NCBI GenBank assembly: GCA_047967505.1
Contig: CM106538.1
Direction: 5' to 3' (one strand)
Source: Dipteris shenzhenensis
Lineage: Eukaryota
Length of the DNA: 64,000 nucleotides
Positions within the stretch are counted from its first letter, which is position 1. The number at the start of each line of letters is the position of its first letter. The notes under the pieces are model-generated. The model saw nothing but the letters and a program-made list of their open reading frames with translations. It made no database searches and had not been told where the DNA came from. The position numbers were made by a program, and so were the translations under genes. Positions 3,146 to 35,568 of this stretch are shown here, piece after piece.

Positions 3146-4134
3146 CGGAGTAGAAACTCCTTTGGCTTTTACAAAAAGAGTATGTTACAAAAGTATTGCA
3201 ACGTTTCAATATGGAGGGGGGGAAGGCAGTAAGTACTCCATTGCCTCCATATGTGAAACTGAGTCATACAGATAGTCCCAAATCAGATGAGGAGAGGGCC
3301 ATGATGGCCAAGGTTCCTTATGCATTAGCAGTTGGGAGTCTTATGTATGCTATGATAGCTACTAGACCAGACATTGCATTTGCAGTGGGAGTTGTTAGCC
3401 GGTATATGGCTAATCCAGGAAAGAGGCATTGGGAGGCAGTTAAGTGCATCATGAGGTACATGAAGGGTACCAAGGAGATGTGCATCTACTTTGGTAGAGG
3501 AGACATGCATGTACTTGGGTACATAGATTTAGACTATGCAGGGCATGTGGATAGTAGGAGATCCACTTCTGGTTATGTGTTCACCTTTGTAGGTGGTGCA
3601 GTGTCGTGAATGTCTCGCGCACAGAAGTGCATTGCTTTGTCTACCACAGAGGTTGAGTATGTTGCAGCCACAAAGGGTTGCAAGGAGGCTATATGGCTTG
3701 ATCGGCTAGTGGGAGATTTGGGGATTCATACAGGTGTACCGACATTGCATAGTGATTCCATGAGTGCTATTCAGCTAGCACAGAATCTGGTCTTTCATGC
3801 AAAGACCAAACACATTGAGGTCAGGTACCATTTCATCAGGGAGGTAGTTGAGGACAAGCGCATAGAGCTTGTCAAGGTTCATACAGATGATAACCCTATA
3901 GATATGCTGACGAAGAGTCTACCTAGTCAGCGGTTTGAGTATTGTCGTGTATTGATGGGCATTGGATAGTATGCTCACTGGTTGTTCTCCCTTAAAGGCA
4001 CATTGTCCTTTAAGTGGGAGGTTGTGGGGGTTAAAGGTCACTGTACCTTTACCCCGGTTATGTACAATACTCAAACACATATATAAATGAATGAAAAAGA
4101 AGATTAGGGTGGTTCTGCACCCACCAAAGCTTGT

Positions 4135-5608: not shown

Positions 5609-8600
5609 ATGGCACCAAGGCAAAAGAAATCAACTACAAGAGGTAATTCTAAAACTTTTTGGTACTGATAACCTTGGAATATCTATGATGGACGTGAGCA
5701 ATATATAACTCATCCTTGCTGGTTGTGATATATATTCAAAGGAACTAAAACTTATGCATTGAGATCTGGACCATCAAGAAGATCTCTGAGTGAGGAGTGT
5801 ACATCTCGTACTTCACAAAATGATGCAAATAACCCACACATGGAGATACTTGCAGAAACTGAGGCTACTATCACTCGGGAAGAGTCATCATCTCATCCCG
5901 TGATTAGTCTTGAACAATAGGAGGTGCAAGAAGAGCCTCGAGGCCAAGGAGAGCAAGAGAGTGCAGAAAAGACAAAAGAAAAAGCTCCAACACATGTAAG
6001 AGTACTTGGGAAGGAGATTCAAATTGGACTTTTGCAAGATGTCCTTGATCAGTTTTGGATGCAAAGAAGAATTGAACCCCCTTTGATTCCTCTCTATAGA
6101 TTTATTCTTAATGAGGCTATTCGAACATTAACGTCTGAGATTATTGTTTTGATAGATAGTTTTGATTCTAGAGGCTATGCTATAAATAGTGCACCTTTTC
6201 TAGTATCCTTGCAACGGCCAGGAAGTGATCAATTTTTCTATGTTACTGCACTTGATCGTCAAGAATGGGGGCCTATTTGGAATCAAATAAGTGAGGACTT
6301 CGACAACCAGCTAAGTAATGAGTGGCAAGACTTGAAGCAGAAGAAGTTTCTCGTTTGGGATGGAAATCATAGGTTGAAGGCATGGTTTTCTCGGATCAAA
6401 GACGGTACTCTCTTGATAAATCTATCATGCATAAGGAAATGTTCTATTATAGTTTACATTGCACATGATTATGTCATGCTTGTGGAATTGATATGTTGTA
6501 GCTTATTCAATAATGCCAACTCTCCATATCCAAGTGAGATGCCAATTCATAGAGGTGCAGAAATCTCAAGAGGGAGAGCTACTTCTTGCCTTAAAATCAA
6601 CCAATGAGTAAGATACTTTTTATAATACTTCTATGTATAGCTAGTTTAACTTCTTCTCTTTAGAAACTAAGTCTATTGGTATTTATGTCTTTAACTTCTT
6701 CTCTTTAGAAAGTAATCCCCACGTGAATATATGTTGGTATTGCAGACTTGTTCGAGCGCAGGTAGAGCATTCATATGGGCACGAGGTCTTCCTCTTTCAA
6801 AAATTTGGCATGGCAGATAAATCCTCACTTCTTGAGTTATTGAGTGAAGAGGATAAGAGATGGGTGGAAGTGGAGATGGTAATAGAAAGGAAGAATAGTA
6901 ACCCATGGTACACAACACCAGCTATTGTCTTGGCACAGCTTGTTTGGAAGGTATCTACACGAACTATAAATATCCCTTTGCTCTATGAAAGGTGTCCCAA
7001 AAAGGATAATGTTTTGATTTCTTGTTTTCATGGAAGGTTGATTTTTCACGTGCAATCAAGAAAGCTACTTAAAATCTTAATCAATCGAAGATGGAGTCTG
7101 GAGGAGTATACTAATAAATTTAGTAAGGCTATTAAGAATGTGGAAGTCATCTTTCGTGATCGAGCATACAATGTTTTGATTTCTTGTTTTCATGGAAGGA
7201 TGATTTTTCACGTGCGATCAAGAAAGCTACTCAAAATCTTGATCAATCGAAGATGAGTCTGGAGGAGTATACTAATAAATTTAGTAAGGCTATTAAGAAT
7301 GTGGAAGTCATCTTTCGTGATCGAGCATACAAGATGGTACCTGTTGCCAATCCCGCAAATGGTGATGGCTTCTTTGAGCTTCTATTTAGTTATGATTGGA
7401 ATCAAAAGGGTGCCATGACTAAGGACAAAGTGCATATATTATCCTCATCACGTCTTAACCCTAATAGGTAATGTCAATTAATGTTTTTGCACAATCACTC
7501 CATAGTGATGCTAATATTTTTTTCCTTTGCCATGATATTAATAGGAAAAAAGAGCTTCTACAACAATTGATGATGGCATGTGGAAATGATACAGTTGCAT
7601 CTGCTAAGTATGGGGATGCCCAAAAGTTTCGACTACATGTGAAAAAGGAAACATATTGGCAATACTTGTTTGAGCGAGGGATTTCCATCATCAACAATTT
7701 GCGAAGCCATGATTTGGAACTGCCTGATGGGTTTGAGACATTTGCTCGAGAGCGAAGATGACTTCACCTCCAAGAAGCCTTCCCTATGCTTTGGAAGGAT
7801 ATGAAGTCTACTCTTGAAGCAAATAAGCAGCCAGAAATGCAGGAGTCATCCTTACGCTTGGTGTATAGGTGGTACAATAGCAACCCTCTCCTTTCTCTTA
7901 GGATTAATAAACTGTTTTACTCATATGTCTACATTCTTTCATACATAATAGGTGGATACGGTCTTGGCATGATACCAATTCATCTTCAAGGATGCCATAT
8001 GAGGTCATGGCATGGACAAACATGGAGAAAGAGGGAAGCATGTATCCCTTATCTTGGAAAGATAAGGGCATAACGATTTGGGAGATTAATGTGTGTCCTT
8101 GGTGGTTGGATTACCCACTGGGAAAAGTACATCCCATTGAGAAAAATAGATGTGAAGGTAATAGTCCAAAGTTCCCTATTCCATAGGCATCTAGACCAAT
8201 GTCTATATATGCGGGTATCTACCATATACTTAAGTTTGCAACATTTGCTGCTCAATCTTCGAGAAGAACATGGAAGACAATATGGATGCGGATGAGTTGG
8301 ATGTAGAGAACCCTTATGTGGATATCACATTACGACCTAGATCAATGGATGGAGAGTCAGCTATCAAGAAAAGACCTATGAGATCTCTACTCCTCATACT
8401 TATGTAATAGTTAACAACTAACACTAAAGAAACAATATAGTATAACCTAGATTCTTGTAAGTGCTTCTTGACTTTGGTTATTTACATGATGATGGAGAGG
8501 AGGTACATTAAATCACCTAAATGTTTGTTTATATTGGTCTAATAAGCATGATTTGGATGTATCTAACTTGAGGTGTCATCATCCATTAGGTTCACAATCT

Positions 8601-8874
8601 ACAAATGGGTATCTTCTGGCGTGGAAAATCTGACCTCCCACACATGGATCGACAGGTAGGTGCAAATGTCTCTAATAAGCTTTTTCCAGCAAAGACATCA
8701 ATGCTACACAAGTGTGACCGTAAACATGTCACAAAACGAACACAAGTTGCATCAACTTACTTACGAGGACGGGAAGAAAGATCAGATTACTTGAACGAGT
8801 AAGACCCTATACAAGCACAGATTGAATTTATGGGGTATAATTGAAGTTCTTTCAAGGAAAACAAATATGGATTG
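5609..8874 (+). pseudogene. 5' part of a spliced gene with a ParB/Sulfiredoxin-like N-terminal domain; continues after element I as the methyltransferase-like segment
   Basis: ATG at 5609 (MAPRQKKSTTR). A phase-1 GT-AG intron at 5643-5741 keeps the frame into ORF 5924 through one TAG. Motif KKFLVWDGNHRLKAW. An intron from 6405 to ~6501 yields HIQVRCQFIEV...LLLALKSTN. Further exon-like frames run to 8874 with stops and frameshifts. Confidence 0.7.
7008..7330 (+). repeat. ~162-bp tandem duplication covering an intron/exon junction of the ParB-like gene
   Basis: The unit AATGTTTTGATTTC...CGAGCATAC occurs at 7008-7169 and 7170-7330. Confidence 0.9.
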
Positions 8875-9989
8875 TGTGACGCCAAAAATTGATATTTTTA
8901 ATTTGGCATTGGTATTATTTTTCTCTATGTTTGATAAGAGTTTGAGTATCAAGTGATAGCCTAGCAGCTCTCACTTATTTCTATTTTCTATGATATTGTA
9001 TGGGATGGAGAGGATGAGTGGAATGGCTCATTGTAAATACCATAGGTATGAATTATAAATACCTTAGTATGGGGTGAGAGTTATTTGTGTATGGGATATT
9101 ATGGAGTTTTTTAAAAAATAGGAAGAGTGAGTCATATAAAGAGGTGGGCTCATGTCCATGTGTTCCAATAATATAAGAAAGGCCACATGCCAAGCGTATG
9201 GAAGGCATGTGGAGGAGTGTGAAGTCAAGAGGAATCCTTCTAGAACTCCTATGTGGAATAAGGAGGATGTGGACATGTGGAAAAGAGAAGGTCCCTATGG
9301 GCTCCATGTAAGAAGACTCTTGACTTTCTCAATATTTTAAGAGTCTTGAGCATCTTGTGATGGGACACATGGCAAGAGTAGCCAAAAAGGACATGGATGG
9401 TGACATACATGCTTATGTGATTGATGGGGAAAGGAATCTACAGGCAACAATTATAAATGAGTGAAGGAGGGTAACAAAATCTCTATAAAAGGAGCCCTCC
9501 TCTCCCTTGTTCATCGAATCTCTTCCACCATTAGGCCTCATGTTGCTGTAGCTCTAGCCTCCTCAAGCCTCTTCCATGAGCCTTCTCTCCCTCTTGTAGA
9601 TATTCTCTTATGTAGACTCTTGAGTCCATCTCTCTCTAGATTATTCTCTCTCTATGAGTAGTCTTGGAGGTTCCGCTCCCTCTTATATGTATGAAACCTC
9701 TTCTTCTCACTTGTATTTGTAGTGTTGGAGTGGATTCTCACTCTATTTGTGATGAAGGTCACTTCAGGTTCTCTCTCTCTTGAGTGTCTCGTCCCTTTTC
9801 TTTCTTTTAAAGCCTTGAAAGTTCTTTCTATTCGGCCGCTCACTGTGCATACATGGTCCATTTGTTTCCCGACCCACCATGCAAACTTCTTCCCCTCTTC
9901 TAGGCAAAATCTATGAGGGGTGGATCGTTGATGAAGGTGAGTCTTGACGGAGCATCCTGCTCAGGCGAAATTAGCCTGGGTGGAGGGTA

Positions 9990-10520
9990 GTTTTCATGAC
10001 AGTTTGACCCCCTATTAGTATTTTGCTCATAACGTTCTGCTCAGTAGTCCGATTATAATGAAATTTATATCAGCACGAAGCTCTCTTTAAGGCACATGTT
10101 TGTATGTAATCAGATTTTGAATCAAATACAACTGCAAAAAGTTATGATTCTCTGTGTCTGATAGTCTATTTTCATGATAGTTTTTACCCCCGTCTAGTAA
10201 ACTATCCATAACTTTTTGGCCGCTTCTCAGTTTCTTATGAAACATATATCAGCGCGAAGATCTCTTTAGGGAGCATGTCATTAGGTACTTAGATCTTGAA
10301 TCAGATATTGCTGCAAAATGTTATGACTCTCTGTGTCTGATAATCTGTTTTTATGATAGTTTTTACCCTCTTCCAGTAAACTATCCATATCTCTTCAACC
10401 GTCTGTCTGTTTTCAATGAAACTTATATCAGCGTGAAGCCCATCTCAAGGCGCATCTCTTTGTGTGATTGAATCTTTAATATCATGTCTTTATTGAAAGT
10501 TATAGGCCTCTGTGTTTAAT
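9990..10520 (+). repeat. ~178-bp degenerate tandem repeat (about 3 units) inside the element I LTR; also ~14675-15200
   Basis: Recurring TTTTCATGA(C/T)AGTTT...ATGAAA(C/T)TTATATCAGC...GTTATGA(T/C)TCTCTGTGTCT. Confidence 0.75.
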
Positions 10521-11019
10521 GATAGTTTGTAGAGTGTTTTGAGCTAAGTGTAAAGGTGTCTATGAAGGAGGTGCAATGTTTCCTCGGAATCTACCCATCT
10601 GACCTAATCAGCCCCTTCAAACTCCTCGATATATATCAGTTCATGTCATTTTGAGCCGCAAGATCTTCTTTCAACAATGTATCACTCTTCTCTTTGGTGT
10701 AGACGGCTCGCTGAGATTATGGCCTCTGCTGATCCTTTCCTTCTCCCTATGCTTGATTACAACATCACTTGGGATGTTACCATCTTCATTCTCATCTGAG
10801 GGAGGAAAGTATAGTGTGGTATCTTGGCATAAAAGCTTCTTTCTAATGTCCCATTCTCAATGATAAATATCTTTGGTAGTCAGTTTGAAAGCAGCAGGAA
10901 GTGAAGAGGTACGTGAAGTTTATTACCCCCAACTTGATGTCACATCTTTTGGTGGAGACGCCGGGTACGTTTGGTATTGGATTCATCCCACCTTACTAAA
11001 CGGTCTCGGGTGTACTTGA

Positions 11020-11549
11020 TTGCATGTTATGCCTAGAAGAGGCATGTGTGTTGATGAGATAAAGAAGATGCCTGGAAGAACTCCGTTAGAAGAGATTGCA
11101 ACCCGTTTAAGAGAACTTGAAGATTGTGACGGTGATGCTCAAGCTATTCGCACAGTCACCATGATCATATCCTTTATGTTTGCACTGTTGAATATGTTGG
11201 TGAATCAACAACGCCGGCAGCAGGCACAATGATAGATTGGGGATTGTTCCATGCTCTGGCAGCTTGGTGTGAAGAAGAGTTGAGTCTTTGGGTAGTTTTC
11301 GACTATAACAGTGGAGTGGTGATTCTTAATGCTTTCAACTTCTTTTGCTATGCAAATGATGAAGAGTACAATATCTTGAAGCTTTTATGTGCACTTCCTA
11401 TTGTGAGAAGGGTGGTTCTAGAATGCATGTATACACAATGTTTTCATGGTGCTGGTTGGTCACTTATTTTTGAAGATTTTGTTGAGGATCACATTGTGGA
11501 GGTTTTTCAACAAGTGGTTATGCATAATAAGTTGGTCTTGGTATACTAA
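11020..11549 (+). pseudogene. Two short ORFs overlapping at ATGA in the gag position of element I; possibly a degenerate gag
   Basis: Lie right after the PBS; only weak capsid-like pattern. Confidence 0.3.
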
Positions 11550-11687
11550 GGCTCTGTGGGATCTTGTTCGGATCTAGTTTGGGATATTATTTAGATCTTG
11601 GTGTTTCCTTTTTGTGTTTCATCATGGTGAAGATTCCAGTGTTTTGAGGGACCCAAGGGGAAGACCCAGAGTCTTATCTTCGGGATT

Positions 11688-13064
11688 TTGTTCGAGTTGA
11701 ATGCATGCACTAAGAGGGATCATTTTCCTTTGCCATTCCAAGATGAAATACTAGACCAAGTAGCAGGGCATGAGATGTATTCTGTATGTGATGGGTATTC
11801 TGGGTACTTTCAAATTCGTATTCGGGAGGAAGATCAAAAGAAAACATCATTTGTCACACCTTGGGGAGTTTTTGCTTATAGAGTGATGCCTTTTGGGTTG
11901 ACCAATGCACCAGCTACATTTCAAAGGTTCATGAGTCAAGTCCTGAAGCCTTACTTGAAAAAGTTCATATGGGTGTTTTTGGATGATTTTTGCATTTATT
12001 CTTGGCGCATAGATCACATGGAGAAGTTAAAGATGGCCTTAGCTAGGATTGATGAAGCAAAAGGGTGTCTAAATCCTAGCAAGTGTCATTTGGCTCAAAC
12101 AAAAGTAGTCTTGTTGGGGCATATTGTGTCTGAAGAAGGCCTGCAAATGGATCCTGACAAGGTTCAAGCAATCATGGCATTGCCAAGTCCTAAGAGTATC
12201 ACTGGTGTTCATAGAATTCTAGGAAAGAGCAAGTATTATCAACGCTTTTGTGATGATTTCATAGAGATAGTGCATCCCATGAACTTGCTGACAAGAAAAG
12301 GAGTTTCTTTTCAATGGGGTGTGGAGCAACAAGAGTCTTTCCAGAAACTTAAGGAGGCCATGAGTAAGGGCCCAATATTGAAGCCCCCTGATTGGTCTCA
12401 AGACTTTTATGTAAATCCAAGTGTATCTTTGCATTCAGTTGGTGCTGTATTGCTACAAAAAGGAGAGGCAGGTAAAATGCAACCCATCTATTATGCCAGC
12501 CGACAGCTTACAGATGTGGAAACAAGGTATGAAAAAATGGAGCAGCAAGCTCTCTCTTTGGTGTTTTCTGTCAGAAAGTTTTGCTCCTATTTATTACCTC
12601 GACCATTTTTCTTCCTTACCTCTCAGTCTGTATTAGCATATCTAGTTCGCAAGCCTAATCCTGGGGGGAGATTTGCAAAATGGTTGTCAAAGCTTCAAGA
12701 GTTCTCTTTATCTTTTGTCACTGAAAATACCACTAGGTCCACTATGGTAGATTTGCTCACAGGACGGGAGGATCTAGGAGAAGAAAAGAAATGTAAGGAG
12801 AACATTAAAGATGAAAGGGATACACCACCAACAGCTTTTGTTTTGTATTTTGATGGGGCTTTTAGTCCTTCATGCCAACAAGGAGCCAGGGGAATAGTCT
12901 TGATGAATCCTAAAGGTCAAGAGGTATGGGCAAGAGGACAAGAGCTTCCAGGTTTCACAACTAACAATGCAGCTGAGTATAATGCTTTGATTCTTGGTTT
13001 GGAGGGTTGTCTTCAAAGTCAAGTTAAAGAATTGGAAGTAAAGGAGATTCTCAGCTTCTTATAA
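11688..13064 (+). CDS. Gypsy RT + RNase H + additional archaeal-type RNase H (partial pol, 458 aa open)
   Basis: DGYSGYFQI, MPFGLTNAPATFQR, VFLDDF, QPIYYASRQL, then LYFDGA...TNNAAEYNALILGL. Confidence 0.85.
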   Translation: MFELNACTKRDHFPLPFQDEILDQVAGHEMYSVCDGYSGYFQIRIREEDQKKTSFVTPWGVFAYRVMPFGLTNAPATFQRFMSQVLKPYLKKFIWVFLDDFCIYSWRIDHMEKLKMALARIDEAKGCLNPSKCHLAQTKVVLLGHIVSEEGLQMDPDKVQAIMALPSPKSITGVHRILGKSKYYQRFCDDFIEIVHPMNLLTRKGVSFQWGVEQQESFQKLKEAMSKGPILKPPDWSQDFYVNPSVSLHSVGAVLLQKGEAGKMQPIYYASRQLTDVETRYEKMEQQALSLVFSVRKFCSYLLPRPFFFLTSQSVLAYLVRKPNPGGRFAKWLSKLQEFSLSFVTENTTRSTMVDLLTGREDLGEEKKCKENIKDERDTPPTAFVLYFDGAFSPSCQQGARGIVLMNPKGQEVWARGQELPGFTTNNAAEYNALILGLEGCLQSQVKELEVKEILSFL

Positions 13065-15623
13065 AGCAAATGTAAGGGCATTACAAGACAAGAAGTCCTC
13101 ATTTGAAGGAGCTTAATCAAAAGGCTATGGCACTATGTAGTCAGTTGATTTTTGCAAGTTTGTTCATATAAACAGAAAAGAAAATCAAAGGGTAGATGAG
13201 CTAGCTACTCAAGCCATTGTAGTACAAGACCAGGGGGTGGTTTCTTGGGTAGACACTGGACAAAACTACACTGGGTAGACACTGGCCAAAACTACAAGAT
13301 GTTCAGAAATATGTGGAAGAAGGCATGTTTCCTCGAGGATTAACTCCATAATAGAAGCAGAGATTGGTTACTTTTGGCCACGCCTCCATAAGGATGTATA
13401 TGAATGTCACGAATGGAACCTATCAGCTTGAGGAGGTTGATGGCATGGTGATACCCGGACACACCAATGAGTATCACCTTAAATTCTTCTATGCTCGACC
13501 ACCTTGAGGGCCAGCAGACCCTCTCTGTACTAGAGAGGATCTGCTGGGGGGGGAAAGATGTGACGCCAAAAATTGATATTTTTAATTTGGCATTGGTATT
13601 GTTTTTCTCTATGTTTGATAAGAGTTTGAGTATCAAGTGATAGCCTAGCGGCTCTCACTTATTTCTATTTTCTATGATATTGTATGGGATGGAGAGGATG
13701 AGTGGAATGGCTCATTGTAAATACCATAGGTATGAATTATAAATACCTTGGTATGGGGAGAGAGTTATTTGTGTATGGGATATTATGGAGTTTTTTAGAA
13801 AATAGGAAGAGTGAGTCATATAAAGAGGTGGGCTCATGTCCATGTGTTCCAATAATATAAGAAAGGCCACATGCAGAGCGTGTGGAAGGCATGTGGAGGA
13901 GTGTGAAGTCAAGAGGAATCCTTCTAGAACTCCTATGTGGAATAAGGAGGATGTGGACATGTGGAAAAGAGAGGGTCCCTATGGGCTCCATGTGAGAAGA
14001 CTCTTGACTTTCTCAATATTTTAAGAGTCTTGAGCATCTTGTGATGGGACACATGGCAAGAGTAGCCAAAAAGGACATGGATGGTGACATACGTGCTTAT
14101 GTGATTGATGGGGAAAGGAATCTATAGGCAGCAATTGTAAATGGGTGAAGGAGGGTAGCAAAATCTCCATAAAAGGAGCCCTCCTCTCCCTTGTTCATCG
14201 AATCTCTTTCACCATTAGGCCTCATGTTGCTGTAGCTCTAGTCTCCGCAAGCCTCTTCCATGAGCCTTCTCTCCCTCTTGTAGATATTCTCTTATGTAGA
14301 CTCTTGAGTCCATCTCTCTCTAGATTATTCTCTCTCTATGAGTAGTCTTGGAGCTTTTGCTCCCTTTTATATGTATGAAACCTCTTCTTCTCCCTTGTGT
14401 TTGTAGTGTTGGAGTGGATTCTCACTCTATTTGTAATGAAGGTCACTTCAGGTTCTCTCTCTCTTGAGTGTCTCGTCCCTTTTCTCTCTTTTAAAGCCTT
14501 GAAAGTTCTTTCTATTCGGCCGCTCGCTGTGCATACATGGTCCATTTGTTTCCCGAGCCACCATGCAAACTTCTTCCCCTCTTCTTGGCAAAATCTATGA
14601 GGGGTGGATCGTTGATAAAGGTGGAGTCTTGAGGGAGCATCCTGCTCAGGCGAAATTAGCCTGGGTGGAGGGTAGTTTTCATGACAGTTTGACCCCTTAT
14701 TAGTGTTTTGCTCATAACTTTTTGCTCGGTAGTCCGATTGAAATTTATGTCAATGCAAAGCTCTCTTTAAGGAGCATGTTTATATGTGATCAGATTTTGA
14801 ATCAGATACTACTACAAGAAGTTATGATTCTCTGTGTCTGATAGTCTATTTTCATGACAGTTTTTACCCCCGTCTAGTAAACTGTCCATAACTTTTTGGC
14901 CGCTTCTCTATTTCTTATGAAACATATATCAGCGTGAAGCTCTCTTTAAGGTGCATGTCTTTAGTGCTTAGATCCTGAATCAGATTCTGCTGCAAAATGT
15001 TATGAGTCTCTGTGTCTAACAGTCTGTTTTCATGATAGTTTTTACCCCCTTCTAGTAAACTGTCCATATCTCTTCAACCGTCTGTCTGTTTTCAATGAAA
15101 CTTATATCAGCACAAAGCTCATCTCAAGGCGCATATCTTTTGTGATTGAATCTCTGATATCATGTCTCTACTGAAAGTTATAGGCCTCTTTGTCTAATGA
15201 CAGTTTGTAGAGTGTTTTGAGCTAAGTGTAAAGGTGTCTATGAAGGAGGTGCAATGTTTCCTCGGAATCTACCCATCCGACCTAATCAGCCCCTTCAAAC
15301 TCCTCGATATATATCAGTTCATGTCATGTTGAGCCGCAAGATCTTCTTTCAACAACGTATCACTCTTCTCTTTGGCGCAGACTGGCTCGCTGAGATTATG
15401 GCCTTTGCTGATCCTTTCCTTCTCCCTATGCTTGATTATAACATCACTTGGGATGTTACCATCTTCATTCTCATCTAAGGGAGGAAAGTATGGTGTGGTA
15501 TCTTGGCATAAAAGCTTCTTTCTAATGTCCCATTCTCAATTATAAATATCTTTGGCAGTCAGTTCGAAAGCAGCAGGAAGTGAAGAGGTGCGTGAAGTTT
15601 ATTACCCCCAACTTCATGTCACA

Positions 15624-15831
15624 GATTGTCAAACATCCTTTGATCCCTTTTAGTGCTTCTTGTAGGTGTATACTCATAATATTCATAGACCCTGGTGATT
15701 GCATCATCGATGTCTTTGCAGGTTGCTTTGGGATGGCAAGGCTTTGCAAAGAGTTAGGTCGCCATTGTCTTTCCATAGAGAATGACAATGTTGTTGCTGA
15801 CATGTGTCTGCGATCAATCAGTACAGAATAG
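15624..15831 (+). pseudogene. 3' end of the interrupted gene: SAM-binding C-terminus resembling beta-class N6-adenine/N4-cytosine DNA methyltransferases
   Basis: KHPLIPFSASCRCILIIFIDPGDCIIDVFAGCFGMARLCKELGRHCLSIENDNVVADMC* fits the family pattern HP..KP......I...T.PGD.VLDPFAGSGTT..AA..LGR..IGIE. The TSD joins it to position 8874. Confidence 0.7.
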
Positions 15832-16002
15832 CATTTCCATAAACTATGTAGTATTGACAGTAATACTTGTGATCATCACTTTTGATGTTCTTGTTGAGGT
15901 TGTCATGTAACACATACAATGCCCTTGGTCATGGTGGTTGTGTGGCACAAGAGTGTCTTTATTGCTCTATGCTTTTTGCTCTTTTTTGGATCCATAGTCA
16001 GA

Positions 16003-18032
16003 GGTTACTATGTGGGGAATGCCCTTGTCAATATGTATGCCAATTTTGTGAACCTAGATGATGCAAGGGCAGTGTTTGCAGAGATGCCACAATGGGTTGT
16101 GGTCTCCTAAGTGCGATGATTGCTGGTTGTGCTAAGAATGGGCATGGCAAGACAGCCCTGCAACTATTCAAACACACAAAGAATTTTGTGAACTAACCTA
16201 TTGGGATGTAGTGTCATAAATGTCCTCTAGCAACTCTGCCTGGATATCCTTTCAGGATGTGCTCATACAGCCTTATGAATGCCTGAATGGGAAAGTCTCC
16301 TCTCTGACTGGAGGAAATCTCTCTAGAGAAACCTCTGACTGGATTCCCATTCCTCAATGCCTGCATGCTGGACACCTGTTTGCTGAAGTGTTGCTGTGGT
16401 TCTACTGGAACTCGAACCTGCAAAAAGGTTGGCCACTGTCTGGGACAGCCCTCCAGGCTACAAGTCCTCACTACTGCCCTACGTTCCTGTAGTCCATGGC
16501 TCCTGCCTGCACACCTTCCTGCAGACTGCTCTCTCTCCTTCCTACAGACTGCTCTCTCTGGCCACAGCTGTCTGTTGTAGACTGCAGTGCTCTGAGAGTG
16601 TCTTGCTGTTGGGGGCATGTAGGTGTTTTATACCCCTTTTTTCCCAGCCAGTTGGTTGCAATATGGCTGGAGGAGGGAGGTCGGCTGGAAACAGCTAAGT
16701 CGGCCAGTAAATTCTAACCGACTGATTTTTGGCCCTTTTGGCATCTATGTGTGCCCTTCTGCCCAACATTTTGGACCCAAGCCTTAGTCCATAGCCCTCA
16801 ATTAGGGCAGCCACCCACAGAGCTGCACATTGCTGTACAGAACTTCCATCTTGGCAACTTCCACCACATGAACCACTGGAGAAGTTGCTTGCCACTGCCA
16901 CCACTGCCGCCACCAGTGTTGCTGTCTGTCCATGGCCATGCTTCATGCTACTTGTAATTTGGCTTCTCTCAAGCCTGGTGATCAACAGGCATCCTGCTGA
17001 TGGGTTACACTCCCCCACTAGAACTGCGGAATTCCTATGTGTAGACTCGAAGTAAAGGACTACATCCTTGCCAAATTGTGATTCATCCAACCACACTTTG
17101 TCATACATAGGATACCCCTTAAACCTTCCGTCTGGTACCCTTCTTGTACTGATGCAACAAGACTTATTAAGTCTACCACCAACTCTTATAGACTGTCATT
17201 GCCCACAATATCTAGCTCCTTTTGATCAGGGGGTGCTCATAGGAATCAGACCATGATCTTTGGTTACTCACATGAACTACCGAATGCATCTTCCAACCCG
17301 CTGGCAACTCCAACTGGTAGGTGAGACTGAACATGTGCATGTTGTTCTTGCTTGAGCTTTTTGGGAAAATGCAACATAGTGGCATGAAGCTAGATAGATT
17401 CATATTCCAATGCATGGGAGCCTTAGAAGAGGGTAGAGTAATCTATGCTACTATTGTTAGCAACAGATGGGAGTTGGATTTTGTTGTGGGGAATGCTCTC
17501 ATCAATATGTATGGCAAATGCAGCAGCAGAGAGGATGTGACGGTGGTGTTTGTTACAGAGTTGCTATAGTGAGATGTCATCTCCTGGAGTGCCCTGATTG
17601 GCAAGGAGGCATTGCTACTCTTTGCCTTATGGATTTGTGAGCCATCGTGACTGCCCTAGCAGAGGATTGAGTGATTGCCCATAAAGGGCATGGCAAAGAA
17701 TCTCTGCAACTGTTTGGCCAAATGCAGGTTGAAGGTCTCGTGCCAGAGACAAGATCACCTTCGTCTGTGTTATGGATGCTTGTGCTTGTATGACATCCCT
17801 AGAAGAGGGTCGTGTGACCCATGCTACTGTTGCTGGCAATGATGGGAGTCAGATGTTATTGTGGGGAATGCCCTCATCCATATGTATTGCAAGTGCGTGA
17901 ACCTAAATGATGCAAGGGCAGTGTTCACAGAGATGTCACAGTGGAATGTGGTCTCCTAGAGTGACATAAGTGCTGGTTGTGCTCAAAATGGGCATGGCAA
18001 GGCAGCCCTGCAACTGTTCAGTGGAATGCAGG
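16003..18032 (+). pseudogene. Fragmented PLS-class pentatricopeptide-repeat (PPR) gene, interrupted by a chromovirus fragment and cut off by an LTR
   Basis: Repeated VGNAL(V/I)NMY.KC....DARAVF.EM...VVSW..MIAG.A.NGHGK.ALQLF motifs at ~16003-16170 and ~17350-18032, with stops and frameshifts. Confidence 0.85.
16212..17325 (-). mobile_element. 3' fragment of a chromovirus-type Gypsy: integrase C-terminus/chromodomain remnant, PPT and putative 3' LTR (16212-17009)
   Basis: TYQLELPAGWKMHSVVHVS and KGYPMYDKVWLDESQF; AGTGGGGGAG followed by TGTAAC on the minus strand. The left boundary is tentative. Confidence 0.6.
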
Positions 18033-18334
18033 TGAAAAAAAGGCTCTCGACCTCTTTATTTGTTGATAGTGCACTATGTGGATGGGACTTCTCTTCATGT
18101 TGGTTTTCGATTTCTCCTCATCTCCTCCCAATCTAAGCCGTGATACCTTCATTTTGATTTCAAAGAAAGGTTTTTCCAAATTCCATGCACACATTATTGT
18201 ACACACATAGTATTGCACGAGGATCCTTCCATTACTTCATAAGTCTTACTTTACGAAGTTATGTCAAGTTCATTCATATCCATAAGCAAGGCCCTCTCTC
18301 TCTAGGTGACATCAAGAGATGTCGGCCTATAACA
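18033..18334 (-). mobile_element. Orphan 3' LTR (302 bp, TGTTAT...TTTTCA) with upstream PPT
   Basis: GAAAGGGGG immediately precedes TGTTATAGG on the minus strand. It abuts the PPR sequence at 18032. No partner LTR in the window. Confidence 0.6.
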
Positions 18335-20455: not shown

Positions 20456-22399
20456 CAACACCCCTTCAAAGATATTGTAGCACCTACTATCTCTACGGAT
20501 CTTCTTTCTCTCATAGCTAGTACTTTCCGAAGGAAAGGAGAAAGTGGTCAGAAACCTATAGATACCAGCATATCATGGATCCCCAACTTCTATGGCCACT
20601 ACAAGGGTTACATCGAGGCACTCCTCTAAATCAATCAAAGCATTCTTCAAGTTGGAATAACCCCCTTTTACAAAGTTGAAAGAAAAATCATATTCTTGTA
20701 GAACTGCCAACCATTTGGCGAACTGACCCATGGGATTTGGTGATTGAATAACCTGCTTTGCAAGACCATTGCTAGAGATTATAATGAAGGACTTCCCAGC
20801 TACATAATGCTTAAATTTCTCAATACAGAACATCAAAGACAAGGCATGCTTGTCAACCTCAGAGTAGCATCGTTCAGTTTCAAGAAATTGTCGAGAAGCA
20901 AATCGAACGGGATACATGAACCGATCCTCCCCTTGCTAGAGAAGAATACCCACCATAGTGTGCTCACCAAACCCAACATTGCTATGGAAAGTCTTTGACC
21001 AATTAGGATTGCATAGAATGGGTTCTGAAGCCACAACACTCTTGATTTGTACAAACCCATGATCACAATCCTCATCCTAAGAGAAATCAACCCCATCTTT
21101 TAATACTGTAGTCATGGGTCATGTCAAAGTAGCATATTGATCAATGAATCAGTGATAGTATCTTGCTAGATTGACAAATGAGCATACCTGACATTTTGTT
21201 GTTGGCGGGGAGAGATTGAGGATAGCTTCTACCTTCTCAGGGTCAGGCTTGACTGATGGGATATCTCAAGGTGTATGCCTCAGGCACACCTTGGCTTCTA
21301 TGTGTGAGTGCTAGAGGCACAGTTAGGTGCCCACAAGCACAGTTAGGTGGTGGAGAGCCACATAGGATGATTGAGAGAATCTAGGAGCAGATTGAGGAGA
21401 TGATTGTGGAGCTCTGAAGTCATCAGTGATGTCAGTGAGCATGTATGAGGTGCCTACTTAAGGACCTCACTCTTCTTCATTCCATAATGCAAGTATTCTG
21501 AGTTTGTGTCCACTCTTTCCTTTCCTTTCAGTTTACCAACATGGTATCAGAGCCCTTTGATCCCCCTTGAGCCCATTTTTGCCACATCATCATCTTCTTC
21601 TTCATCTTCTTCTTCTCCATTTTCCTCCTTCTTCCCAAAATCTTTGAGAGCTTGGTTCTCCGCCTACAAATGACCATTGCCCAAACCCTCTGATTTGGAA
21701 ACTCCTCTAGTATGGTCGAACTTCCACCTGCAAGCAATTGAGAAAAAAACGTCTCTGTTGGCTGCCATTCTCCAAACGGCAAATTTCCTCTATTGCTTAA
21801 TACTCCCTGCCTACTCCGCCATTGTCTGAGCCCTCTTAGGAGTAGATGGGCGACCTCAAGATGAAGATTTTGAGCCACTTTTCAGCTCATTTTGTTTAGT
21901 AACGAGGGAGAAATCATCAAAACTCAGGTTCAGTCTGTAGCAACTCCCCCGGGCAAAAGTACGCACCATTTTGTCCAACCTCTGTGCTGGACCCTCTCTG
22001 GTATATGAGCTTTCTTTTGCTTCAGAAAGCCCTCTTTTCCTTGCTTTGAAGAGTGAGCTACAAGCCCCCCAAGTTCAGCCTTTTAGTTTTGATAGTTTTG
22101 GACAAGTTTTTGAAGATGATGCTACATAAAATGCTACTCTAGCATTTCTGGTTTTTTGAAACTTTCAATAACTTCAGTACAAGTGTGGCTTCAGTTTTGT
22201 TTTGAATTGCTAGACCTGGTTTTGATTGGAAAGTATTCATTTTAGCCACTTCTATGAAGCATGTAAGCAGAAGCATCATTGATTGAATATTGGTCACTAG
22301 TCTTTGCTACATCAAGTGCTCATATTTTGGAAGTCTTTCAGTTATTTTTTGCCTTGTAAGAGAGATAGACACTGCCCAATATCTGGGTTAGACCCTCTC

Positions 22400-23230
22400 A
22401 TGGCTACCCTATTGAATCTAGAGAAGTTCAATGGAAAGGGCTTCCACACATGGCAGATGAAGGTGAAATTTGCATTGATGAGGGAGAACCTATGGGGACT
22501 TGTCAAACCGACTCCTACCGCTTCTTCTACGGCCTCCAATGCTGGAGAATCCTCAACTCCGACACGACCGGCAAGGGATCCAGCTAGAGAAGAGAAAGCA
22601 TATGGTATCATTGCTCTTGCTTTAGGAGATGATTATATTCACCATATCTCTGACTTAGAGTCTCCTTCAGAAGCTTGGCAGAAGCTTGACATGATTTTTG
22701 GTGCTAGCTCTCACATTTCTAAACTATCACTTAAAATCTCTTTCTTTGAATTGAAGATGGTTAGTGGCACTACTTTGGCAGCTCATGTCAACTATATGCG
22801 GAGTCTTATGACTCAATTAGCTTCTATCAACTCTCCTATTACTCCAGATGATGCTATGGCAGTGTTACTTAAGAGTATGCCTGAAGATTATGATCATATA
22901 GTTACCACTTTGAAAAATCTTCCTAATCCTAATCTTGAAGGTATTATCTCTGCTCTCCAAGAAGAAGAAAGGCATATGGAGCTCAGGAAAGGAAATGACA
23001 CTGCTTATGCTGTAAAAGTCCAGAAGGGCAAATATACCCCTTGCAATCACTGTGGAAAGACAAATCACCTTTCAAAGGACTACTTCAAAATTAATCCATG
23101 CAAGCACTGTGGCAAGAACAACCATAATGAGAAGTTTTGCAGAGCCAAAGAAAAGATAGAAAATGCAAATCTACTTTCAGTTGATGAGCCTCCGCAAGAT
23201 GAGGCATCCTTTGAAGATTATGCATTTTAA
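22400..23230 (+). CDS. gag: Copia-type Gag (276 aa) with two zinc-knuckle-like motifs and its own stop codon
   Basis: EKFNGKGFHTWQMKVK, LLKSMPEDYD, CNHCGKTNHLSKDY (degenerate), CKHCGKNNHNEKFC. No protease or pol follows. Confidence 0.88.
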   Translation: MATLLNLEKFNGKGFHTWQMKVKFALMRENLWGLVKPTPTASSTASNAGESSTPTRPARDPAREEKAYGIIALALGDDYIHHISDLESPSEAWQKLDMIFGASSHISKLSLKISFFELKMVSGTTLAAHVNYMRSLMTQLASINSPITPDDAMAVLLKSMPEDYDHIVTTLKNLPNPNLEGIISALQEEERHMELRKGNDTAYAVKVQKGKYTPCNHCGKTNHLSKDYFKINPCKHCGKNNHNEKFCRAKEKIENANLLSVDEPPQDEASFEDYAF

Positions 23231-24409
23231 AACATCTCTATGTATGCTCTAGATCTCTCTTTTTAAGTCAAGGTACTCAGCCTAGATAGTCCTCCAAAAT
23301 GAATGAAATAAATTATTGTGTTTTGTGTGTTTTGTAAACACCTCTGGTCACCTTATGATGTAGGCCATGTGTATGTTTTGCTCCATGGTACCTCCTACAG
23401 ACATTGTGTGCATGTACATGCAGGGGAGATAACCATTGGAAGGTCTTTTTGGATCCCTTTTGTTTACCTTACACCCAAGGGAACCCTTGCTAGCATGAGA
23501 ACCTAGCCATAGATTTATCCTTGACCACCATGAGATGGCATGAGAAACTATGAGACTAGATGTTGTTGAGATATTAAGCTCTACCCCCGATATATCTCCT
23601 GGATGACTATCATTTATGTCACCGCCTATGTTAGTTGTACTCGTGGTGTAGTTAGACTACCACGTATGTTTTTGGTTTGGGTTCACATATGAACCACGTA
23701 TTCTAGGGTTTGACATATAGGGTATTTCCCTCTTCTATTGTATTGTTGTTGTGTGCAAAAGTGAAGAAAGGCTTCACCCTCCAACCTTGTGTCCTCTCTC
23801 TTTTGTGTGTTGTGAAGAAAGCTGCACTTGAGTCTCCTATCTCTCTCCCTTATTCTTTACATGGTATCAGAGCCTTGTTTGTGGTAAGGAGCTCAAGAAA
23901 GCAAGCCAAGCTTGTGATGTCCTGGTAAGAGGACCAGTGTTGCTTTCCTATTTCGAGTTTGGGAGCAAATCTCTGCAGGTAGCACAGCCAAAAGTGCAGG
24001 AGTGCACTGTTTCAGATTGAGAGGCCCTTCACGGTGTGGCGAGAGCGCAGTATATTTTTTTGATTTGAGGCCGTTTCGGGGCCCGTTTTGAAGGCAGAAG
24101 TTATTCACAAGCACTCAGAAAAAGGCCCTGTTTTTTGCTGTGCGACCACTGCGCGGCTAGTCGGTGGAAAGGTGCCACAGAAATTGCATCGTATGCCTGT
24201 GTGCAGAGATATTGGGAGTTGCAGATTCATGCCTGTTGCCTGTTGATGCAAAATCGTCACTAGGAAGTGACTGTGTGGTGAAATACCACTTTCGTCAGTG
24301 TTGCAGATCTGCCCCTGTGAGGCTGTTTGTAGAAGTTTTGCTATTTTCCCTTGTGAGGCATTTGCTGTGTTTACAGGTTGTATTGCAATTCGTGATTTGT
24401 AAAATCTCT

Positions 24410-26985
24410 GAGAATCTGTCTACCATTGTCAGTGAGAAGCTTGACAAGAACAACTTCCAAGCATGGAAGTTCAGGATGACAAACTTCCTTATGGGAAAGG
24501 GAGTTTGGGATTACATCAGTGGTGAAACTGTAGAACCAGTTTTGGGTGCTGCTCCCACTCCTGCTCAATTGAAGGCCTTTAAAGAATGGCATGAAAAAGC
24601 TAGAAAATGCTTGTATTGGCTATCTGTTAGCATTTCAGATTCTATGATTGTGCATATACAGGATGTAGAGATGCCTAAGGAGGCATGGGATACATTGGTG
24701 AAGCTGTATAGCACAAATACCAAAGCACGAAAGATGCAGCTAAAGCAGGAGTTGCACAATGTGCAAAGGAAAAATCTGAATATAAATGAGTATTCCTTGA
24801 AGGTGAAAGGCCTTGCAGATTCTCTTGCCTCCATTGGAGCACCTGTTGATGATGAGGACTTAGTGTCCGTGACCTTGAATGGTCTTGGGAAAGATTATGC
24901 ACAGTTTCGGACATCCATTGGAGTCCGTGAAACATTTCCTGATTTTTAGGAACTTATTGCTCTCTTACTGAGTGAAGAGCAAAGGAATGGTGGTTCAGCC
25001 ACCTCAACTTCTCAAGAGACTGCTTTCTACTCAAATACAGGTAGAGGCAGGGGTAGAGGAAGAGGCCGTTTTGGTGGCCGTGCAGGAAATCAGAACCAAC
25101 AGCAGCAACAGGAAAACCAGTCCTATGGAGGAGGACGTGGTAGTTCTAGAGGCAGGGGGAGCCAAAGAGGCCGTGGTTCATGGCAAAGGAACCAGCAAGT
25201 AAATAGCAGCACAGAATGCTATTATTGTGGAAAGCCTAGACACAAGGAGAATACATGCTATAAAAAGCAGAATGACATCAAAAGTGGGAAGTTGCAGCAA
25301 AGCAACTATGCATCATCAAGTGGGCATGGTGACGACAGAAATGAGCACCTTTTTGTGATGCAGCATATGGTTAACTCCATGTCAGGAGATGCTGCAGCTT
25401 GCAATGATGTTTGGTATGTTGATTCAGGTGCCTCTAACCACATGACCAGTCATGGTGAGTGGTTTCATGATGTTAGAAATTTGGATCAGCCAGGTTATGT
25501 TGAAACAGGTGATGATACTGTGCACCCAATTATGCAGGTTGGTAAAGTGCCATTGGCTATGCAGGACGGCAAAACGAAGTACTTGGCAGATGTACTTCAT
25601 GTTCCAAAAATCACTAAGAACCTGGTTTTAGTTGGCCAGATGGTTGAGCAAGGTCTGCAGGTTAGATTTAATCCTGACGGATGCTTTGTTGAGGACTTGA
25701 AAAATAAGTGCCGCTTGGTTGCAAAAGGCAACAAAAATGGCAGAATGTTCACCTTAGATGTTGATATGCCTGAGGTGAAAGCTGCTATGTTTGCGCATGG
25801 GAGAGGTGTCATTGCAGATATTGAGATATGGCACAAGCGCATTGGGCACGTGAATATACAAAGGCTGAAATCTATGCAAACAAAAAACATTGTTGCAAGT
25901 TTGCCTAAATTCAGAGTTGAGGGAATGCAAAAGGTATGTGAAGCATGCCAAATGGGTAAGCAGGCTAGACATGCATTTCCCAAAAATGCTAAGGTGAGCA
26001 GAAGACCTTTGGAAGTGATCCATTCAGATGTTTGGACAACCAAAGCTGCTTCTATTGGTGGATGCCATTATTATGTGACGTTTATTGATGACTACACTAG
26101 GAAGGTGTGGATTTATTTTATGAAGCACAAAAGTGAAGTGTTCAGTCATTTCAAGGCTTTTAAGGCCATGGTTGAAAAAGAGAAAGGTGTGCATATTAAA
26201 GTGCTAAGATCTAATGGAGAAGAATTTTGTGAATATCTGAAAGAACAGGGAATTCAAAGGAAGTACTCATGCAGGTCTACCCCTCAGCAGAATGGGGTTG
26301 CCGAAAGGAAGAACAGGCATATTAGAACAGGCATATTGTAGAAGTAGGACGGGCGATCCTAAATGAGAAAAACATGCCTGATTATTTTTGGGCTAAAGCA
26401 GTAGCAACTGCTGTTTATATTATGAACAGAACCCCCACTGCAACTGTCCATGGCATGACGCCTGAAGAAATGTATACAGGCCAAAAACCAGATATTTCTC
26501 ACTTGAAGGTATTTGGTTGCATAGCTTATGTTCATGTTCCTGATGAGAAGAGAACAAAGCTGGATCCAAACGCAGAAAAATGCATCTTTATTGGATATGC
26601 TCTGCACCAGAAAGGGTATCGTTGTTATAACCCTTCCGCCCGCAAAATGCAAGTGAGTAGAGATGTTGTTTTTGATGAAATGAGCAGCTGGCATGCACCA
26701 ACTGTTATGGTAGGAGATGCAGATGCAGGAAATGGGAATGCTGCAATAAATGCAGAGCAGCAATCTCAAGCCTTGAGTGGACCCAGAGAGTCCTCTACTA
26801 GTGGATCTAATGCATGGACAGGGAGATTGAGATCTAGTGAATCGTCACATGGCAGTCCTGATAGTGTTGTGCAGGTATCACATAAGGGAAAAGAAAAAGT
26901 GGACCATGCTCTAGTGTTTGATGTGTCTGCTGGTAGCTCTCATGTTGATGGAGAGTCAAGTGGCTCTGAAATGAGCCTTGATGAG
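24410..26985 (+). pseudogene. Copia D gag-protease-integrase (stops and frameshifts)
   Basis: EKLDKNNFQAWKFRM, WYVDSGASNHM, WHKRIGH, IHSDVW, QQNGVAERKNR. Confidence 0.9.
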
Positions 26986-28454
26986 TGTTGGCTCTTTCCT
27001 ACTGCTTTCGTAGGAAGAGTGGGTATTCTATGTTGCAGGGTTCCGAGGCTTTTTGTCACCTACAGATATATTGGGTTTGTCGTTGTAGTATATGTGTAGC
27101 TTAGGACCTCGAGTCGTGTTCCGGTGAGAGACGTAGGCTTAAGTGTGGTGAGTAAACAAAATACAAGCATGTGTAAAAGGCACGTAAACCATTGTTGTTG
27201 GGGTAATGAAGGCTTTCGCCTTCATTGGGGGTTGTATGGTTTAGGAGGAGTTTAAGGGTTCAGAAGGAGGTTCCAGGGTTTAGAAAGAGTTCAAGGGTTC
27301 AGAAGGAGGATCCAGGGTTTAGAAAGAGTTCAGGGTTAGAAAGAGTTCCAGGGTTTAGAAGGAGGTTCCAAGGTTTAGAAGGAGTCCAGGGTTAGAAGGA
27401 GGGTCCAAGGTTCAGAGTAGAGTACATGGTGGAGAACTCGTCTCCCTCGTAGATCATGGAGTTTAAGGGTTTAGGAAAGCATAGGAGTGGGAGAGGAAGA
27501 AGGTGTAAGAGCATGGGTGAAGGAAGAGAGAGAGGAGGAAGGAGGAGGAGGGAAGAGGAGGAGGGAGAGGGAGGAGAGAGGAGGAGGAGGAGGAGGAGGA
27601 GGAGGAGGAGGGAGCAGGAGGAGGAGGAGGAGGGAGAAGGAGGGAGGAGGAGAGGGAGAGGGTGGGTTGCAGGGTTGGAGGAGAGGGGAGAAGGGTTGCA
27701 AGGTTAGGACATGCTTTTGGACGTGCAGTGCAAGGAAGCATGGACACTTGAGACAAATGCTTGGAATACCAATGTAGACTCAACACAATGCCCCAAGAGT
27801 GTGGGCTTCATTCCATTATGGGGTATTTATACAAGTTGGAGAGCTTCTCTCTCTGCATGTAACACAAAGTCGTATCACAAAGTTGTAACACAAAGTTGTA
27901 TCAAAGTTGTAACACAAAGTTGTGTCACAAAGTCATAACACATTCTCTCTCTTCTTGTAGAAGTTGTGACACAAACTTGTAACACAAAGTTGTTACACAA
28001 AGTCGTAACATAAAGTTGTGTCTAGAAGTTGTAACACAAAGTTATAACACAAAGTTGTGTCACAAAGTTGTATCACAAAGTTGTGTCACAAAGTCGTAAC
28101 ACATTCTCTCTCTTCATGTAGAAGTTGTAACACAAACTTGTAACACAAAGTTGTTACACAAAGTCGTAACATAAAGTTGTGTCTAGAAGTTGTAACACAA
28201 AGTTGTAACACAAAGTTGTATCACAAAGTTGTATCACAAAGATGTATCACCTTCTCTTTCTTCATAAGTTCATGTTGGCACAGAGTCAACATACTCCCGG
28301 ATCCATTTTATTACCCATCCTCGGGTTATGGCTTATTTTGATTTCAGAGTTGGGATGCCATGTGCGTAATTCAGTGGCTATTTAGCTTGTGGTATGCGAG
28401 TCGTTCCTGCTGTAATTCTTTTGCACCACACAATTTGTAGTCAATCGTCAAGAA

Positions 28455-30339: not shown

Positions 30340-30357
30340 TACACATCTTCTTAATAT

Positions 30358-31917: not shown

Positions 31918-31956
31918 TAGGAGGTCTTTGAGTTTGCTTTCATCTTCTTGACGGAG

Positions 31957-34900: not shown

Positions 34901-35568
34901 TTTCATATCCTTGCAGATTTTCTTTCTTAGACCTGCTATGAACCATGCCGTGAGGTACTTTGCATTTGGGCGTGGGTCACATTTGGTGATCAATCTCTTC
35001 ATCTTTCCCAGGTATGTGCGTACACATCTTCCCTCCGGCCTTGTTCGATCTTGCTGAGTTGGAGAGCGGGATCATCTTGTAGCCTCTCCGTTTGAAAGCG
35101 ACGTTTGAATTCGGTTTGAAGTAGGTCCCATGTAGCACGTTCTTCCACAAGAAGGTCGAGGTACCATTCTGACGCCTCATCAGTTAAGACCATTGGAAAC
35201 CAAGCCACCTTAGTTTCATGGGATTGATCACCACCTGCTCGACATGCGGCATCAAAATGTTGGAGGAAGTGAGCAGGGTCTCCCCTACCATTATATTTGG
35301 GAAGTTCCAGTTTTCCCAAGGGGCGTCGGCCGTGATTGTTGTGATTTCGTCGATTGAAGAAGTTGTCAGCCTCAGCATCGAGCTCGATGTCCCCATCATG
35401 CTCAGGACGACGTCCAGCCATGTTGGGGCGTGGAGGAGTTAAAGGAAGTTGTTGAACCTCAGGGGGGGATTCGGGGTAGAGGATTGGCGGGGGCGGTTGT
35501 TGCAGTGGAGTGAGTTGCGGATTGGGTGAGCGTGGGAGTCGAAGTCGTTGGCCGGAACGTAACTGCAT
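31957..35568 (-). pseudogene. Gypsy C gag (several Cys/His knuckles), aspartic protease and long linker; broken by a frameshift and stops
   Basis: LPKYNGRGDP, CYGCGENHRIAEC, AIVDGGAGVN, ILLGRPWL. Confidence 0.88.

Follow-up and report, generated by a model that had tools for sequence, protein, structure and literature searches.

We identified, in a 64,000-nucleotide stretch of the genome of Dipteris shenzhenensis (assembly GCA_047967505.1, contig CM106538.1; hereafter the window), a pseudogene at 5610-8798 and 15666-15831 that is a member of a multicopy land-plant family. The family almost certainly joins a ParB/Srx-like half and a methyltransferase-like half in one real gene. Intact members have an N-terminal domain with a WDGNHR motif, a helical middle region, some 300 residues long, with CPWW at its end, and a C-terminal methyltransferase fold. 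We propose that these proteins are probably nucleotide-gated nucleic-acid-binding proteins that carry an S-adenosylmethionine (SAM)-binding methyltransferase fold of non-canonical, possibly lost, catalysis. ParB–methyltransferase fusions are already known in phages and bacteria, as are bacterial-type beta-class enzymes in rotifers and Marchantia; what is apparently new is the fused family in land plants. No published description of it was found in the literature searched, which left out supplements and most subscription journals, and the family is thus apparently undescribed.

A gene split by a retrotransposon

The window copy is divided by a long terminal repeat (LTR) retrotransposon on the plus strand (8875-15623), flanked by GATTG target-site duplications at 8870-8874 and 15624-15628. 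The first-pass annotation had proposed that excision of this element at GATTG joins 5609-8874 to 15629-15831 as one plus-strand gene, and colinearity with the whole proteins of relatives bears this out. Searches with the window exon at 5921-6403 recovered two Adiantum nelumboides proteins, P0001 (672 amino acids) and P0002 (620 amino acids), at 54% identity, both with Pfam N6_N4_Mtase at the C-terminus. By tblastn, the fern protein P0002 is colinear with the plus strand of the window on both sides of the element: its residues 27-162 align with 5993-6397, 164-242 with 7205-7456, 214-292 with 7504-7734, 315-359 with 8013-8147, 499-563 with 8590-8784 and, to the right of the element, 568-616 with 15664-15810. 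The best tblastn match of any relative on the window was that of P0009 (E = 1.5e-60), and the match between the last exon and the family profile has E = 2e-19 (58 bits). Because of this colinearity and these two matches, the join across the element is correct far beyond chance.

Seven GT–AG junctions preserve the reading frame (6404/6502, 6607/6746, 6950/7199, 7467/7545, 7871/7952, 8502/8590 and 8798/15666). The claim of frame-preserving introns holds for these seven and fails at the first junction (5642/5742), which is one base out of frame as read. The two halves also stand together, as had been supposed, in gene models of three species: P0002 of A. nelumboides, P0028 and P0062 of A. capillus-veneris, and P0114 and P0182 of the liverwort Riccia sorocarpa.

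The halves could instead be unrelated gene fragments that chance or rearrangement has juxtaposed in repeat-rich DNA. A decayed pentatricopeptide repeat (PPR) pseudogene does begin about 70 bases past the stop of the methyltransferase-like gene, and chimeric gene models occur among the relatives (for example, a CCHC knuckle in P0042), but order and phase are preserved across seven junctions and the same order recurs in independent gene models from three species. Moreover, P0010 (463 amino acids), which reaches from the CPWW region as far as the C-terminus, is encoded on a contig of 1517 bases that has no space for introns of the window type, and therefore appears to derive from a spliced transcript. 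We consider a chance juxtaposition to be extremely improbable.

N-terminal ParB/Srx-like domain

The N-terminal half is likely to have the ParB/Srx fold, on the evidence of a conserved motif and of predicted structure. A WDGNHR-type motif, [WF][DE]G[NHQS]H[RHPQ], occurs in 48 of 152 relatives, and the window reads FLVWDGNHRLKAW at this position. Profile A1, made for this domain, matches 100 of 178 relatives as well as the window exon. An AlphaFold model of the relative P0111, built with 32 aligned sequences, is confident over residues 21-170, where 10-residue blocks have predicted local distance difference test (pLDDT) values of 91-98 and one block has 79. Its elements run strand, helix, strand, helical insert, strand, WEGNHR, helix, strand, helix, which we take to be the ParB/Srx order, and the motif falls between the strand at 121-125 and the helix at 127-140.

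When this model was compared with the PDB by Foldseek, all 15 matches listed up to rank 18 were Noc, ParB or sulfiredoxin, followed by PadC, KorB, SbnI and Arabidopsis sulfiredoxin. TM-scores normalised to the length of sulfiredoxin were 0.39-0.55 for the human Srx entries and 0.57 for Arabidopsis Srx. Among viral models (BFVD), the best match was a Spo0J/ParB-like protein and most named matches were ParB-like; a mycobacteriophage 'DNA methylase' also matches the P0111 model (root-mean-square deviation 3.2, probability 0.98). In the ESM Atlas, the clusters nearest to residues 20-180 of P0111, a relative of window 5993-6607, were fungal DUF3723 clusters and a cnidarian cluster (0.95), and a ParB_N cluster scored 0.91. 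Scores for the middle region were 0.81 or lower and serve as leads only.

Several results weigh against this assignment. The best PDB match had an E-value of 0.15 and none reached 0.001; the best viral match, at 6.2e-3, also fell short of that value. Pfam ParB matched none of 66 A3 members by hmmscan, and the weak Pfam matches among these members were to DndB in three (best E = 0.066) and to DUF1015 in two (best E = 0.0041). A profile search of PDB sequences with the N-terminal domain retrieved no ParB, and an hhalign comparison of A1 with phage P1 ParB gave a probability of 0.1, in what is a weak test against a single divergent sequence. No helix-turn-helix or dimerisation domain was recognised, and Pfam found nothing relevant on the N-terminal and middle exons of the window. 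The first-pass annotation had taken DG[NH]HR to be the ParB/Srx nucleotide-binding signature; this stands as a conserved motif with predicted-structure matches, all at E > 0.001, and does not extend to a match with the Pfam ParB family.

C-terminal methyltransferase fold

The C-terminal half has, with scarcely any doubt, a permuted beta-class N6/N4 amino-methyltransferase fold. For P0010, an AlphaFold model built with 36 aligned relatives gave 104 Foldseek matches to the PDB at E <= 0.001, headed by M1.HpyAVI (1.9e-10), CcrM (5e-10), M.BceJIV, the rotifer N4CMT (1.6e-7), M.RsrI, M.MboIIA and M.PvuII; the beta-class type proposed for the C-terminus in the first-pass annotation is thereby upheld. 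Core blocks of the model (residues 241-440) have pLDDT values of 49-91, with 80-91 over residues 271-340. Pfam N6_N4_Mtase (PF01555) scores above its cut-off of 26.7 bits in P0001 (27.7), P0002 (34.0), P0066 (31.7) and P0042 (34.2), and below it in P0049 (26.3), P0182 (23.7) and P0006 (16.8); P0010 has no hit. The PADLOC type II methyltransferase model matches residues 1000-1166 of P0182 (167 residues, E = 1e-4), and the PHROG and NCBIfam matches are to DNA methyltransferases and CcrM.

The catalytic loop departs from the canonical form. In A2, an alignment of 36 rows of the methyltransferase half of which 25 cover motif IV, canonical (D/N/S)PP(Y/F/W) is present in none of the 25, D-[FL]-P-[TS] in 17 and [DN]-h-P-[TS] in 20, where h is a hydrophobic residue. 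Riccia proteins read DLPTG or DMPSG (DLPTG in P0182), and one fern protein, P0130, reads DVPF. Motif I is D-x-F/L-A/S-G-x-G in most of 20 rows; at motif II, the glutamate is kept in 14 of 17 rows and an aspartate two residues further in 13. The lack of a clear (D/S/N)PP(Y/F) motif that had been remarked on in the window copy is therefore a property of the whole family. Because motif IV fails this test, we do not file the family as canonical amino-methyltransferases. Retention of the altered loop from liverwort to fern suggests that it is under constraint, as judged from the alignment.

Three points count against a straightforward methyltransferase assignment: the Pfam match is mostly confined to the last 45-60 residues, which hold motifs X, I and II; the mean pLDDT of the P0010 model is just 55.8; and the catalytic motif that defines amino-methyltransferases is missing across the family.

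Family distribution and phylogeny

When 1.84 billion representative proteins were searched exhaustively by phmmer, P0002 as the query had 257 hits at E <= 0.001, including 73 at E <= 1e-10, and we examined the best 150. Named proteins come from A. nelumboides (15), A. capillus-veneris (11), the liverwort R. sorocarpa (17), Taxus chinensis (1) and Cryptomeria japonica (1). Profile searches of a word-indexed protein collection added only further Adiantum and Riccia proteins. In the liverwort protein P0182 (1207 amino acids), a single chain holds WDGNHR, a long middle region with SPWW at its end, DLPTG and VIDFAGGWG...CIVAE. The conifer proteins P0049 (Taxus) and P0066 (Cryptomeria) have the methyltransferase-like half only; their motif IV reads N-V-P-S and their N-terminus is of low complexity. 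The gene models of most relatives are fragments, which limits the data behind the preferred reading.

A maximum-likelihood tree of the N-terminal domain was built from 61 rows, selected from 101 profile matches for covering positions 62-165. In this tree the window copy falls together with three A. nelumboides proteins (support 98/93). Riccia rows are clustered, with 2 changes where shuffling gave a mean of 6.7 (0 of 500 shuffles reached 2), fern rows lie in clades of their own, and rows named afterwards fall in the clades of their own taxon. The pattern fits vertical descent with lineage-specific expansion, as far as a tree in which few rows carry species names can indicate.

One A. capillus-veneris protein, P0028, has a C-terminal NIF/FCP1-type phosphatase domain (residues 955-1129, E = 2.4e-12) after a degenerate motif I, and this may be either a genuine fusion or two genes merged in annotation.

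Function and origin

We hypothesize that the ParB-like domain would bind a nucleoside triphosphate (NTP) through its G-N-H-R loop and so gate association with nucleic acid, in line with what the literature on ParB-fold proteins describes. The C-terminal fold would bind SAM, which we regard as fairly probable. With its D-h-P-T/S-G loop, this fold may be a module that binds nucleic acid or SAM without catalysis, or it may perform a non-standard methyl transfer. METTL14 and MTA9 are precedents for methyltransferase folds that are not catalytic.

Intact members could alternatively be active DNA amino-methyltransferases that write N6-methyladenine (6mA) or N4-methylcytosine (4mC), loaded on DNA by the ParB-like domain. 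They have the beta-class fold, motifs I and II are intact, the aspartate and proline of motif IV are kept from liverwort to fern, and P0130 has an aromatic fourth residue (D-V-P-F). Erm/KsgA adenine-N6 methyltransferases use N-[LI]-P-Y, and a hydrophobic second residue therefore need not abolish catalysis. Fusions of ParB and methyltransferase domains are common in phages. The canonical motif is nonetheless absent from all 25 rows, the stacking aromatic residue is mostly T or S, and Marchantia DN4MT1 retains TSPPY. Standard 6mA or 4mC writing by intact members seems to us rather unlikely.

A selfish or transposon-borne gene, cargo or accessory of a DNA element of which the window copy is one dead insertion, is a slightly weaker candidate still. 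It would account for the many divergent copies per genome in both Adiantum species and in Riccia, for the many gene models that are fragments, for the retrotransposons that surround the window copy and for the proximity in the ESM Atlas to fungal DUF3723, which is described as an accessory gene of Starship elements. Against it, the window holds neither inverted repeats around the gene nor a second copy of it, in agreement with the first-pass remark that no transposase or terminal inverted repeats are visible nearby. Transposase, integrase or recombinase domains occur in none of the 31 longer relatives scanned whole and, when the 66 A3 members were scanned singly, were not among the 25 most-matched of 28 families. 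DUF3723 (PF12520) matched none of these 66 members by hmmscan, and the clustering of the tree by taxon fits vertical descent with lineage-specific expansion. A nucleotide-gated binding protein with a non-canonical methyltransferase fold is the reading that we prefer to either of these.

The fused gene may, on balance, have been acquired horizontally from a phage or prokaryotic ParB–methyltransferase, a leaning that comes from the architecture, no close relative among prokaryotes having been found. Neither the best 150 of the 257 phmmer hits nor tblastn against phage genomes yielded a close prokaryotic or phage relative: P0010 had no match in phage genomes, P0099 had only chance matches to tail proteins, and P0066 had weak matches to phage and archaeal-virus methylases (best E = 5e-3).

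In the prevailing view, plants have few DNA amino-methyltransferases, and the sole published plant example that we found is a Marchantia 4mC enzyme specific to sperm. A second methyltransferase fold of bacterial type, fused to a putative ParB-like nucleotide switch and conserved from liverworts to ferns, would provide a concrete set of genes in which to look for marks other than 5-methylcytosine (5mC), for a part in genome conflict, or for the sensing of SAM or NTP on chromatin. Among eukaryotes, it would also be an unusual instance of an architecture known from phages. More speculatively, and in our estimation improbably, non-flowering land plants from liverworts to ferns might keep an expanded ParB-like, NTP-gated and SAM-binding family in which the conserved D-h-P-T/S-G loop performs a non-5mC nucleic-acid modification (6mA, 4mC or a new reaction) and the N-terminal module is shared with Starship DUF3723, as a eukaryotic counterpart of the ParB–methyltransferase genome-conflict modules of phages.

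Comparison with known systems

The ParB–N6_N4 methyltransferase fusions of phages and prokaryotes share with the plant family an N-terminal ParB-type domain and a C-terminal beta-class methyltransferase, and the mycobacteriophage 'DNA methylase' resembles the plant N-terminal model in structure. The plant genes differ in having introns, and their proteins in the helical middle region of about 300 residues with CPWW and in the D-h-P-T/S-G form of motif IV. Phage genomes show no detectable sequence similarity to the plant N-terminal half, and for the methyltransferase half either none (P0010) or the weak similarity noted above for P0066. Gordonia phage Love gp91, Mycobacterium phage Avani gp75 and SG4 gp77 were considered as comparators for the fusion and set aside as methyltransferase-only proteins. 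Enrichment of such fusions in phages is reported in a preprint (10.1101/2025.10.10.680097).

Compared with the beta-class enzymes M1.HpyAVI, CcrM, M.RsrI and M.PvuII, the plant family has the same fold, the same permuted order with motif IV followed by X, I and II at the C-terminus, and similar sequences at motifs I and II. It differs in its motif IV, which is canonical in no row, and in the restriction of the Pfam alignment to mostly the last 45-60 residues.

The bdelloid N4CMT and Marchantia DN4MT1 are likewise bacterial-type N6_N4 folds in intron-bearing eukaryotic genes, and N4CMT is among the structural matches to the P0010 model (E = 1.6e-7). Neither is described with a ParB-like domain, and the word 'ParB' occurs zero times in either text. 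N4CMT is a chromodomain fusion and an active writer of 4mC (PMC8885841). The catalytic motif given for MpDN4MT1a/b is TSPPY, against A-D-F-P-T in the plant family, and on this comparison with the published motif we rejected membership of the DN4MT1 type.

Like the ParB/Noc CTPases, sulfiredoxin and DndB, the plant N-terminal domain is modelled with the strand–helix order and a G-x-H-R type loop at a strand-to-helix turn; ParB/Noc and sulfiredoxin are its top structural matches, and DndB gave weak hits. It differs in a helical insert between the second and third strands and in lacking both a Pfam ParB match and a recognised helix-turn-helix or dimerisation domain; its nucleotide binding is putative. 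The resemblance to fungal DUF3723 extends to 182 of 256 shared features in the ESM Atlas and is a lead only, whereas PF12520 itself matches no member scanned. In their review, Iyer et al. (2016) place ParB-linked eukaryotic adenine methyltransferases only in chlorophytes, chytrids and haptophytes, and report few N6A-methyltransferases in land plants.

Structure and decay of the window copy

We read the exons, all on the plus strand, from the window sequence and its in-frame translations. A possible but uncertain first exon (5610-5642) opens with ATG (MAPRQKKSTTR) and is followed by a GT donor whose phase misfits the next acceptor. The exon at 5741-6404 (IPLYRF...FLVWDGNHRLKAW) encodes the N-terminal region together with the initial part of the ParB/Srx-like domain; it gives the P0009 match described above and scores 195 bits with profile A1. 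The second part of the domain lies at 6502-6607 (HIQVRCQFIEV...ELLLALKSTN), after an intron with GT at 6405 and AG at 6501, and relatives show the same H.RV....h......E....a...N pattern. Both sequence segments quoted in the first-pass annotation are present in the window.

The helical middle region is encoded by an exon at 6746-6950, which has no stops and is covered by a tblastn match of P0150 at 6738-7175 (E = 1.8e-28), and continues at 7199-7467 (RDRAYKMVPVANPANGDGFFELLFSYDW; no stops; 46% identity to P0001 423-519) and at 7545-7871, which ends in RLVYRW and contains an in-frame TGA at 7759. A 163-base tandem duplication, with copies at 7008-7171 and 7170-7332 that are 97% identical, covers the end of an intron and the start of the next exon; its first copy could remain intronic and be spliced out. 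The conserved CPWWLDYPLG motif is encoded at 7952-8157, where P0002 315-359 aligns at 49% identity, and over 7950-8149 each 50-base bin is matched by 27-33 relatives.

A remnant of the methyltransferase-like core (8386-8502) has four in-frame TAA codons, and the motif IV part that should precede it is missing. The penultimate exon (8590-8798; GIFWRGKSDLPHMDRQ...LRGREERSDYLN) corresponds to the RGGAERS stretch found ahead of motif I in relatives. The last exon (15666-15831) encodes methyltransferase motifs I and II (DVFAGCFG...CLSIEND) and ends with a TAG stop at 15829; its own score with Pfam N6_N4_Mtase (E = 6e-5, 23.5 bits) lies below the 26.7-bit cut-off. A terminal 'HP', previously taken to be part of a coding segment, is intronic (15635-15640), which rules it out as methyltransferase motif X.

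The copy is dead, as had been judged earlier: it has six in-frame stops, a missing motif IV part and an altered motif I. Two of the stops interrupt otherwise well-preserved exons (TAG at 5918 and TGA at 7759), and those of the core remnant are TAA at 8419, 8425, 8443 and 8458. Family profile A2 (hmmsearch) matches the window at positions 110-215 and leaves 1-109, including motif IV, unmatched; about 85-100 residues of the methyltransferase core, motif IV among them, are absent from the window. Motif I reads FAGCFG, in which F replaces the last (second) glycine, and PLYRF stands for PLCRL of the relatives, with Y in place of a Cys kept by at least 90% of them. Function would have been lost through the two exon stops, the missing motif IV part, the four core stops and substitutions at conserved positions. 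The window copy is an ordinary pseudogene in retrotransposon-rich DNA and carries no functional weight.

The LTR element was considered as the cause of gene death and rejected: the insertion is in the last intron, and hence was not the lethal lesion. It would have landed there later than, or independently of, the loss of function. The element's LTRs, at 8875-10944 and 13559-15623, share 94.8% identity across an alignment of 2072 bases and have TG...CA ends, and its interior has only one open reading frame (ORF), for reverse transcriptase and RNase H (11631-13061). With the element excised, the last intron measures 113 bases. Within each LTR lies a tandem repeat whose period is about 179 bases (10059-10463 and 14739-15142).

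Neighbouring sequence

Downstream of the gene, fragments of a PPR gene with broken frames occupy 15898-18133 on the plus strand (VGNALVNMYANF..., VVGNALINMYGKC... and AGCAQNGHGKAALQLF). Just upstream, at 3301-3966, is the remnant of a C-terminal reverse transcriptase and RNase H (...EVEYVAATKGCKEAIWL...HIEVRYHFIRE) that looked Ty1/copia-like by eye. Most of the window consists of retroelements, with further retrotransposon ORFs at 22301-27099, 29197-35071 (minus strand), 37556-39465 and 53067-54746. These include copia-type gag, integrase and RVT_2 as well as Ty3/gypsy-type protease, reverse transcriptase, RNase H and integrase.

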